Made by a program: the position numbers and the translations under genes. The notes below the pieces were generated by a model that was not told the DNA's origin, searched no databases, and saw only the letters and a program-made list of their open reading frames with translations. 64,000 bases of DNA from positions 55,764-119,763 of the forward strand of contig CALXOY010000012.1 of NCBI GenBank assembly GCA_944390145.1. The letters are read 5' to 3'. Position 1 is the first letter of the stretch. Each line of letters starts with the position of its first letter. This document shows, in pieces, positions 44,848 through 46,958 of this stretch. The stretch comes from an uncultured Duodenibacillus sp. (GTDB taxonomy: Bacteria; Pseudomonadota; Gammaproteobacteria; Burkholderiales; Burkholderiaceae_F).

Positions 44848-44923
44848 TCCCCGATAGCTCAGTCGGTAGAGCAACGGACTGTTAATCCGTGGGTCGTTGG
44901 TTCGAGCCCAACTCGGGGAGCCA
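44848..44923 (+). tRNA. tRNA-Asn(GTT)
   Basis: 76-nt cloverleaf TCCCCGA...TCGGGGA-G-CCA, anticodon loop CTGTTAA, TTCGAG T-loop. Confidence 0.97.
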
Positions 44924-45007: not shown

Positions 45008-46916
45008 ATCGAGTAGGTGGTAGGTGATTATTTCACCTACCGACCTCTCACACCACCGCCCGTACCAATCTGGTAGGCACCCCTTGCGAGGTGTTTTACG
45101 GCGGTTTCCATAATTCAGTCCCCAAACCCGTTGACCCGTGTTAATCCGAGCCAACACCATCCATGGGTCTTCAGGAATTCGTTGTTCAGGGTTGTGGCCA
45201 AAATGTGGCTATTCGCAATGTGCCAATAGCTCTTACGCGTATTAGCCCACTGGTAAGCCTGCTCATGCGAGCATCCGAGTCGTCGGAGCGCCGCATACCT
45301 CGTCCTTACCCGTTTCCACGTCTTCCATAAGAGTTGCCGGATCCGTCGCCGGATCCATTCGTCGGTTTGCTTTGCCCACTTCTCGTACTTCGCGTATTTG
45401 AAGTACTCGCACCACCCCCTCAACTTCTTGCGGAGCTTCTCCTTCACGCCGTCGATGCTCATCTTCCGGTTTCGGGAGAGAACCTCTTTGAGCGCGTTCT
45501 TGAGTCTTGCCCTCGATTTTGGGTGCACGGTGGGAAAGAATCCGTCCTTGGTTTTATAGAAACCATGGCCGAGAAACTTCACACCGGCCGCGATGTAGCT
45601 CACGGTGGTTTTGGCCTCATTGACTTTGAGCTTCATGCGTCCCTCGATAAACCGAGTGATGCTTGTCAAAGTCCTCTGAGCCGCCCGCTTGGATTTGCAG
45701 AGGATCACAAGGTCGTCCGCGTATCTTGCGAAGCGGTGTCCGCGCCTTTCCAGCTCCTTGTCAAGTTCATCCAGGTAGATATTTGCAAGAAACGGCGACA
45801 ACGGACCGCCCTGCATAAGGCCAACGTCCGACTTCTCCACCTTTCCGTCCGCGGATACGCCCGACTTGAGTATTCGCGTGATGAGCGAGATGACCCGCCC
45901 GTCCTTGATCCTCGTTGATAGTTTCCGGATCAGCCGACTGTGGTCGACCGTGTCGAAGAACTTCTCGAGGTCCATGTCGACTGCCCAGACGTTGCCTTTG
46001 TCGGCTTCGCCCATGACCTTGAAGATCGCGTCATGTGCGCTTCTTGTCGGTCGAAAGCCGAAGCTTGACATCGAAAAGGTGCTGTCGTAGCTGTATGAAA
46101 GCTTTTGTGCAACGGCTTGTTGCACAAGACGGTCGATGACCGTCGGGATTCCAAGATTCCTGAATTTCCCCTTTTCTGGCTTAGGTATGGTTACCCGCTT
46201 CACGGGAGCGGGGCGATATGTCCCCGACAGAATCGCACTCGTCAGCTCGCCGGGGTGGTCGAAAATGTACTTCCGAATTTCTTCGGTCGTCATTCCGCCC
46301 ACGCCTGGAGCACCTTTGTTGGCCTCGACGCGCTTAAGCGCCAGGGTCAAATTCTCGCGACTCAGTATCGCCTCGAGTGTGATCTCCGTAAATGCGGATT
46401 GGTCTTGTGCGGTGTTCTCCATTTCCATCTCGGCCGTTTGCGCCCTCTTGAACCCTTCTCCCCATTCCGTGGGTACCAAGCTCAAGCAGGTTTCGTTAAG
46501 TTTTCTGCGCCATGCGACTTTGTGTCTACGGCACCGTACTCCTATGAATTCAGTCCTTCGGCAGGTACTGCCCTGCTTACTATGACCTCTGCTGACTACT
46601 CACGGCAAGCTTTACTCCGTGCGCCCTGTCGGGCACGCGTCCGTGAGTCCTCCCCGGGTAAGAACGTGTTCTTTCCCACCATGCACCTTCTGCATCTACA
46701 CCTCGGGTTCCGTGTAGCTTTGGGCTTCATCTTGTTATGCAGACTTACCCGCCTTCGTATGCCTAATGCGGTTCCTGTTCGTAAGGTCAGTGGTTTGTCT
46801 CCGGCTTCCTTCAGATTCCGCCTCGCGACGGACACCCTTGCCTTTGACTATGCGCTTGGTGCTACCTCCTGCGCTCGGGACTTTCACCCGTTAGAACACG
46901 CCCATGCCGGGCGAAC
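45008..46916 (-). mobile_element. Group II intron, class IIC (full length, about 1.9 kb)
   Basis: 5' end GTTCGCCCGGCATGGGCG; 3' end with DV (AACCGCCG...CGGTGGT), DVI with bulged A and ...CCTACTCGAT; EBS1 ACAA matches IBS1 TTGT; inserted right after a terminator hairpin; encodes an RT/maturase. Confidence 0.93.
45115..46485 (-). CDS. ltrA: Group II intron reverse transcriptase/maturase, no endonuclease domain
   Basis: NKGAPGV, RNLGIPTVIDRLVQQA, DLEKFFD, QGGPLSP and RYADD; domain X LRGWCEYF...WIRRRIR; start codon uncertain. Confidence 0.95.
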   Translation of the reverse strand: MSLVPTEWGEGFKRAQTAEMEMENTAQDQSAFTEITLEAILSRENLTLALKRVEANKGAPGVGGMTTEEIRKYIFDHPGELTSAILSGTYRPAPVKRVTIPKPEKGKFRNLGIPTVIDRLVQQAVAQKLSYSYDSTFSMSSFGFRPTRSAHDAIFKVMGEADKGNVWAVDMDLEKFFDTVDHSRLIRKLSTRIKDGRVISLITRILKSGVSADGKVEKSDVGLMQGGPLSPFLANIYLDELDKELERRGHRFARYADDLVILCKSKRAAQRTLTSITRFIEGRMKLKVNEAKTTVSYIAAGVKFLGHGFYKTKDGFFPTVHPKSRARLKNALKEVLSRNRKMSIDGVKEKLRKKLRGWCEYFKYAKYEKWAKQTDEWIRRRIRQLLWKTWKRVRTRYAALRRLGCSHEQAYQWANTRKSYWHIANSHILATTLNNEFLKTHGWCWLGLTRVNGFGD

Positions 46917-46918
46917 AC

Positions 46919-46958
46919 AAAAAACCGCGAATCCCTTGATTTACAGGTATTTCGCGGT
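46919..46958 (-). terminator. tRNA-Phe terminator (intron target hairpin)
   Basis: Minus strand ACCGCGAA...TTCGCGGT-TTTTT immediately before the intron 5' splice site. Confidence 0.8.

Follow-up and report, generated by a model that had tools for sequence, protein, structure and literature searches.

Genomic Context of the Intron

The DNA analyzed here (the window) is a 64,000-nt stretch of contig CALXOY010000012.1 from an uncultured Duodenibacillus sp., whose genome (GCA_944390145.1) is a fragmented metagenome-assembled genome (MAG) of 98 contigs with a completeness of 88%. The minus strand of the window contains a class C (IIC) group II intron, which encodes a reverse transcriptase (RT)/maturase and follows the terminator of a tRNA gene (Table 1). 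Domain V (DV) forms the catalytic heart of group II introns, and its counterpart in the spliceosome is the U6 stem-loop. In this intron, DV was found to be branched, with an additional hairpin capped by a GNRA loop in its lower helix, and the same branched form was found in a clade of related introns (hereafter, carriers).

Table 1. Features of the intron and of its upstream flank (positions in the window).
Feature	Position	Strand	Details
Class C (IIC) group II intron	45008..46916	minus	about 1909 nt
Intron 5′ end GUUCG	46912..46916	minus	G3U compared with the GUGYG consensus
Intron-encoded RT/maturase open reading frame (ORF)	45115..46485	minus	likely start M20 at 46428, giving 437 aa
DV, 54 nt, three-way junction	45052..45105	minus	sequence, fold and covariation
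Helix 1, 5′ strand ACCGCCG	45099..45105	minus	pairs with 45058-45052; CGC triad 45103-45101
Junction strand UAAAA	45094..45098	minus	invariant across the clade (alignment columns 9-13) and in the host-genus matches
Inserted hairpin, helix 2	45078..45093	minus	stem 45093-45088 with 45083-45078; GCAA loop 45087-45084
Helix 3, canonical distal part	45059..45077	minus	CC/GG (pairs 8-9), UACC/GGUA, pentaloop AGAUU
Domain VI (DVI)	45011..45049	minus	3-bp basal helix GAG/CUC; bulged branch A 45014
Intrinsic-terminator hairpin and U-run of the upstream tRNA	46919..46958	minus	read from sequence
Upstream tRNA	47073-47001	minus	

The intron's 5′ end was located using an alignment of 10 clade members and nine relatives with a normal DV, all of which start right after the U-run of a terminator. 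The 3′ end was placed at the point where the flanks of near-identical copies (dozens of copies) diverge. The window copy begins 2 nt past the U-run of the tRNA terminator, and other clade members are likewise located behind terminators that are unrelated in sequence. All nine intact 5′ ends in the clade alignment read GUGCG, compared with GUUCG in the window copy. The 3′ boundary is AU and the bulged A45014 is present in DVI; with the 3′ end at 45008, this residue lies 6 nt from the 3′ splice site and is the branch point.

An Rfam search of the intron recognized domains I–IV, with 131.1 bits for RF02001 (D1D4-3; gathering score 32) and 45.8 bits for RF01998 (D1D4-1; gathering score 35). The encoded protein has the YADD motif and, in a profile search, matched RVT_1 (4.3e-41) and GIIM (1.9e-14), with no further Pfam family and no endonuclease domain. 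A start at M20 is favored because the resulting length matches that of the homologous RTs (435-449 aa). The stop codon is located 9 nt ahead of DV. In a tree that contained no reference set of other classes, the RT clade of the carriers lies among introns whose ribozymes have class C features.

Most of what the initial annotation had stated about the element was confirmed. Its assignment to class C is supported by the RF02001 and RF01998 matches, the RT without an endonuclease domain, the CGC triad, the short distal stem and the terminator-side insertion. The DV sequence that it had given (45105-45052, minus strand) was reproduced letter for letter, the RT that it had called intact has an open frame with the RVT_1 and GIIM matches, and the position that it had placed right after a terminator does have a hairpin and U-run (46958-46919) just upstream. 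As for the 3′ end, the bulged A in DVI stood, but the intron does not end directly after CCUAC; the real end is at 45008 (CCUA with the bulged A as its last letter, followed by CUCGAU). The opinion that the rest of the element looks functional is slightly too generous for this copy, given its G3U 5′ end; its RT frame, DV and DVI are intact. The element fits class C in every tested feature except the unbranched DV of about 32 nt and, in this copy, the third 5′ base.

Structure of Domain V

In the window DV, 21 extra nucleotides (45098-45078) separate pair 7 from pair 8 of the lower helix; they lie in its 5′ strand, 2 nt after the CGC triad. They comprise the junction strand UAAAA and a stem-loop with the sequence CACCUC-GCAA-GGGGUG. 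The joint between helices 1 and 2 is 5 nt long, and those between helices 2 and 3 and between helices 3 and 1 are 0 nt long. The canonical elements retained are the CGC triad, the G.U wobble formed by G45102 in helix 1, the CG bulge (45062-45061) and the distal stem of 4 bp; the distal part reads CC UACC AGAUU GGUA CG GG and is followed by CGGUGGU. Pairs 8-9 are CC/GG in the window compared with UA/UA (or UG/CA) in normal relatives. Folding of the 116-nt region using ViennaRNA gave the three-way junction with a minimum free energy of -51.2 kcal/mol (z = -4.97), and 0 of 200 shuffled sequences folded as well, in agreement with the initial reading of the 21-nt GNRA hairpin as the part that makes DV a three-way junction.

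The opposite assignment, in which the GNRA hairpin would be the true distal stem and UACC...GGUA the insert, was considered and rejected. The UACC...GGUA hairpin matches the normal class C distal stems, including the CG bulge, and is therefore the ancestral part.

The model RF00029 (Intron_gpII, covering DV–DVI; gathering threshold 40 bits) gave no match to the window intron even at E ≤ 1, and it did not match four other carriers either. Among three ordinary class C introns taken as controls (L008, L059 and L032), one reached the gathering score and two remained below it. The failure of RF00029 was therefore rejected as proof of an abnormal DV, and surveys requiring this model will miss many normal IIC introns as well.

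Comparison with Normal and Enlarged Domains V of Class C

The DV of IIC introns is highly conserved, with a CGC triad and a distal stem that is 2 bp shorter than in IIA and IIB introns (PMC1702495). A comparison set of 80 relatives was gathered via the RT protein alone (47-53% identity) from named genomes of Bacillota, Bacteroidota and other groups, and all 80 were found to have an unbranched DV of normal size. A typical one reads ACCGCCGUA-UACC-GAAC-GGUA-CG-UACGGUGGU and is 32 nt long. Some of these relatives show variants of the DV sequence, including AGC triads, and the distal part of a Clostridium intron (L080), UACC-AGACC-GGUA-CG, is of the same type as in the window.

Typically, IIC introns have a DVI basal helix of 3 bp and a distance of 6 nt to the 3′ splice site, and they need their own maturase for proper folding and branching (PMC4748821). 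The clade shares with the class C introns B.h.I1, O.i.I1 and GBSi1 the RT and maturase without an endonuclease domain and a small ribozyme of the D1D4-3/D1D4-1 type. The CGC triad, the 4-bp distal stem, the 3-bp DVI basal helix, the branch A located 6 nt from the end and the post-terminator site are also common to them (PMC1702495, PMC4748821). However, the DV of the clade is branched and 52-54 nt long rather than an unbranched 32-nt hairpin, and its extra GNRA hairpin interrupts the lower (catalytic) helix, with the triad on one side and the bulge on the other.

Other enlarged class C DV forms were present among the matches listed in a metagenome scan (described below), many of them followed by a normal DVI. 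They include a palindromic hairpin at the boundary of the lower and upper helices, opposite the bulge (L115 and L122), a hairpin inside the distal stem (L096, L119 and L201), extensions of the distal tip (L112, L121, L149, L209 and L107), a hairpin after nt 8 of DV (L108) and long forms of 63-67 nt; further loci with an enlarged DV are L197, L125, L103/L147 and L126/L129. The introns L107 and L108 form a separate long-branch RT clade. These forms resemble the branched DV of the clade in that a hairpin has been added to a class C DV, at its tip or in its 5′ strand, with a normal DVI after it, but they differ in position, sequence and RT lineage and have neither the UAAAA junction nor the GNRA cap. 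They look like independent origins. Evidently, the size of DV in class C is less fixed than textbooks say.

Lineage-specific additions are known at the termini of group II introns, namely the class B 'domain VII' (B.c.I4 type) and the 5′ insertions of CL1/IIB1 introns (PMC4424553, PMC4028801). Like the branch described here, they are extra RNA on an otherwise standard, active and mobile ribozyme; however, they are terminal and lie outside the core, whereas the addition in the clade is located inside DV. No structured insertion inside DV was found to be described in the literature searched, the curated group II intron database and key older papers being outside this search, and it is probable that a branched DV has not been described so far.

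Conservation and Covariation of the Inserted Hairpin

Metagenome proteins with 97-66% identity to the window RT were abundant. The DNA behind three RT homologues (90%, 72% and 68% identity) was inspected; all three carry the insert, and their stems are different in sequence but complementary. Then, metagenomes were scanned for class C DV flanks separated by at least 5 extra nt, with the insert itself left unconstrained, and many more carriers were found among the matches listed.

Covariation was evaluated in 19 distinct sequences from independent metagenome and genome assemblies, which were aligned to a covariance model of the junction. Note that such an alignment is fitted to the model; a plain MAFFT alignment of the 6-bp forms gives the same pairs. 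The inserted stem has 6 bp (5 bp in one subclade), and all six pairs were changed on both sides, with 100% of the cells paired. The covariation score was 0.279 compared with 0.071 for shuffled data, 0 of 500 shuffles reached 0.279, and registers slid along the stem gave at most 0.08. The pairs of helix 1 were 100% paired in all seven cases, five of them never varying, and five of the six pairs of helix 3 were invariant.

Six loop variants were found (GCAA, GCGA, GUGA, GGGA, GGAA and GAAA), all of them GNRA. These states need at least five substitutions, all at loop positions 2 and 3, for which a rough chance estimate is (1/3)^5. The same two positions differ even between close relatives, namely GCAA, GCGA and GUGA within approximately 87-90% RT identity.

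In the initial annotation, absence of the insert from close homologues was regarded as a sign against a genuine ribozyme variant. The opposite was seen: the insert is present in all the homologues examined, from 97% to approximately 54% RT identity. The covariation of the inserted stem, which it had proposed to look for in homologues collected through the RT, appeared as compensatory changes in all six pairs. Its suggestion that the ribozyme tolerates or uses a branched active-site domain is also supported by comparison, namely by the conserved insert, the covariation and the many insertion sites.

Origin, Hosts and Mobility

An RT tree built from 101 sequences placed the 19 carriers in one clade with an SH-aLRT support of 100, so that one gain explains the distribution of the insert. 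The nearest outgroup is a long-branch intron from a Burkholderiaceae MAG, which has a normal DV. Among the RTs examined, those with at least 54% identity to the window RT go with the insert and those with 53% or less go without it, and none of the clade members among the carriers examined has lost it. A search of protein clusters for intermediates between 54% and 53% identity gave nothing useful; the clade collapses into a few 50% clusters.

Within the host genus, 7 of 34 species genomes carry the motif, and it was absent from all 396 genomes sampled from 166 other genera of the same order. The contigs of the subclade with the 5-bp stem contain flanking genes that are only about 70% identical in DNA to the window genome, which indicates a second, related host group for this subclade. 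Most of the runs and contigs holding these introns carry gut (chicken or human) metagenome labels; a listing of sequencing runs gave DNA contigs from chicken-gut, food and manure metagenomes. A search of a plasmid collection gave matches to the shared DVI segment only.

The L085-type intron was found with at least 12 different 3′ flanks and an identical DV–DVI, and near-identical introns stand behind many different terminators. The complete-looking genome G024 contains seven intron copies. One of them (L239) is 1905 nt long, has an open frame of 459 aa and is located behind a terminator. Three ORF-deleted derivatives of 859, 906 and 1116 nt, in which the longest frame is 105-231 aa, keep both intron ends and the branched DV, each behind its own terminator; they are probably mobilized in trans. 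Judging from these sequences, the intron family with a branched DV appears to be still actively jumping.

Several further arrangements were recorded. In the G024 genome, whose ORF-deleted derivatives and tandem are at the loci L231, L233/L234 and L235, one copy starts directly after the 3′ end of another, forming a head-to-tail tandem, and the same arrangement was found in L173. The loci L086, L087, L088, L239 (G024) and L242 represent the same L085-type insertion with the same 3′ flank, and this recurrent insertion adjoins a convergently oriented IS605 OrfB/TnpB (Cas12f-like) gene. The locus L242 is the GenBank entry MT839988.1 ('UNVERIFIED: Bacteriophage sp.', human faeces), which contains one unannotated intron copy. 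A 5′-truncated carrier (L089) adjoins an IS110-family transposase gene. In another 5′-truncated carrier (L151), a short shared sequence links the intron to a 23S rRNA gene at the gene's 3′ end, and this junction could be a real insertion at the end of the rrn operon or an assembly chimera.

The window genome itself (G000) contains a second intron copy on contig C69 (L002:126-333), which is cut to the first 208 nt. It is 98% identical and has the 5′ end GUGCG. The terminator in front of it is a different one, and past its breakpoint the sequence is unrelated and contains a direct repeat of TTTAAATTGACCCCC. On contig C27 of the same genome (L003:1500-1580), another tRNA is followed by a paralogous terminator that shares 88% identity with the intron-side one over 41 nt. 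This terminator is unoccupied and represents the target without an intron (…CGCGGUUUUUUGU/UGCC…). An empty-site comparison with nine relatives from the host genus showed that only the tRNA at 44848-44920 is conserved and that the second tRNA does not adjoin it; no clean unoccupied site was found among these relatives.

Possible Role of the Branch

The branch has a single origin and has stayed under structural selection while the lineage diversified and apparently kept transposing; it should therefore be compatible with splicing and reverse splicing. It is most likely a small peripheral functional element; the probability of this interpretation was estimated at roughly 0.6. In the simplest model, helix 1 with the triad and helix 3 with the bulge and the distal stem-loop would be coaxially stacked, since the 3′ strand is uninterrupted and both helices have canonical sequences, and the normal metal-binding geometry would be preserved. 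The 14-16-nt GNRA hairpin would project to the side, attached by UAAAA to the 5′ strand between pairs 7 and 8. In the usual classification of three-way junctions, joint lengths of this kind (0, 0 and 5 nt) correspond to an approximately perpendicular third helix. The invariant adenines of the junction could lock the stack of helices 1 and 3 by A-minor-type contacts. The strict GNRA cap suggests a docking contact: the loop may dock on a nearby helix with no sequence specificity, or it may touch the maturase, steadying DV in the active site.

A number of observations weigh against a functional element of this kind. The free loop positions 2 and 3 point to a non-specific partner or to none, so that a sequence-specific receptor is disfavored. 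No GNRA receptor and no covariation linked to the loop was found by eye in domains I–III of 10 carriers and nine normal relatives, and no clade-specific insertion, extension or indel was found in the RT comparison. In the clade, domain III has a short distal stem with a GCAGUA loop and domain II is a simplified hairpin; these peculiarities are partly common to the nearest relative with a normal DV (L059) and are not clearly coupled to the insert. Covariation of the stem is also to be expected from mere selection to keep a harmless insert folded. The branched-DV ribozyme is almost certainly active, with splicing and reverse splicing in vivo, but this is a reading of copy number and conservation. 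Finally, the window's own copy may be impaired through its GUUCG end, its RT frame, DV and DVI being intact; the conclusions on the lineage are unaffected by this end.

The strongest competitor of a functional element is a tolerated passenger, that is, a neutral or slightly harmful 21-nt insertion that was fixed once and is kept tightly folded with no positive contribution. The stem sequence varies freely, close relatives differ at loop positions 2 and 3, neither a receptor nor a protein co-change was found, and the unrelated hairpins at other DV positions suggest that hairpins in the 5′ strand are simply tolerated in class C introns. All this would fit a passenger, yet UAAAA has stayed invariant across a clade that diverged to approximately 54% RT identity, the six loop variants are all GNRA although at least five substitutions occurred, only at permitted positions, and no member of the clade has lost the insert. 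We therefore regard the passenger as a possible but less probable explanation. At the other end of the scale is a dead copy or an assembly artefact limited to the window contig. The non-consensus 5′ end and the fragmented, incomplete MAG could have raised this suspicion; however, the same architecture recurs in seven species genomes and in about 55 further contigs, which are independent and come from several collections, and the covariation and the intact RT frames of 437-459 aa in other carriers do not agree with it. Given conservation, covariation and many insertion sites, neither an artefact nor a dead oddity can be upheld for the lineage; this explanation is already refuted there, and its remaining probability is negligible.

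Two more specific roles were also considered. The hairpin could serve the retroelement rather than the ribozyme, for example as a contact for the maturase/RT, as a translation or stability element after the RT stop codon, or as a switch holding DV inactive until the protein binds. The hairpin lies 9 nt past the stop codon, the zero-length joints on two sides of the junction permit an alternative stack of helix 2 on helix 3, and IIC introns rely on the maturase for folding and branching (PMC4748821). Nevertheless, such a role seems improbable: there is no clade-specific RT domain or indel, the absence of a U-run behind the hairpin means that it is not a terminator, and the ORF-less derivatives keep it unchanged, so that it cannot be solely an expression signal linked to the ORF. 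The other role concerns the active site. For IIC introns, recognition of the 5′-exon terminator hairpin has to take place beside the catalytic centre. The invariant A-rich junction and the GNRA hairpin might form a lineage-specific clamp and be a working part of the active site; in the boldest form of this idea, they would dock on the G+C-rich terminator hairpin of the 5′ exon. We consider this doubtful. If it were true, a natural group II ribozyme would work from a multi-helix junction, as U2/U6 does, and the GNRA loop would be a ready break point for splitting DV into two RNAs.

In the U2/U6 core, the functional equivalents of DV (the triad helix and the bulge stem-loop) are likewise joined through a multi-helix junction, of three or four ways, that surrounds the AGC triad and the U6 internal stem-loop, instead of forming one continuous hairpin (PMC4424553). 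However, this core is bimolecular and U2 stem I branches from the strand across from the triad, whereas the branch of the clade leaves the triad strand within a single chain. The likeness would be topological only.

Significance

Reviews treat DV as the one reliably conserved part of the ribozyme and as the anchor of search pipelines (PMC4028801, PMC8919778, PMC4424553). The clade described here indicates that an active-site helix can probably be interrupted on one strand with its function kept, and it offers a naturally occurring system in which to ask how triad and bulge are kept in register. The insertion point is also a possible graft site for foreign RNA modules (aptamers, cryo-EM scaffolds and switches) in gene-targeting introns. 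The surveys based on DV, whether by RF00029 or by motif scans, undercount introns, and both the lineage with the branched DV and several other enlarged forms are common in gut and environmental metagenomes. In addition, this lineage lends modest support to the view that a catalytic hairpin made of one piece can evolve in the direction of a junction, a change required by the scenario in which small nuclear RNAs originated by fragmentation.

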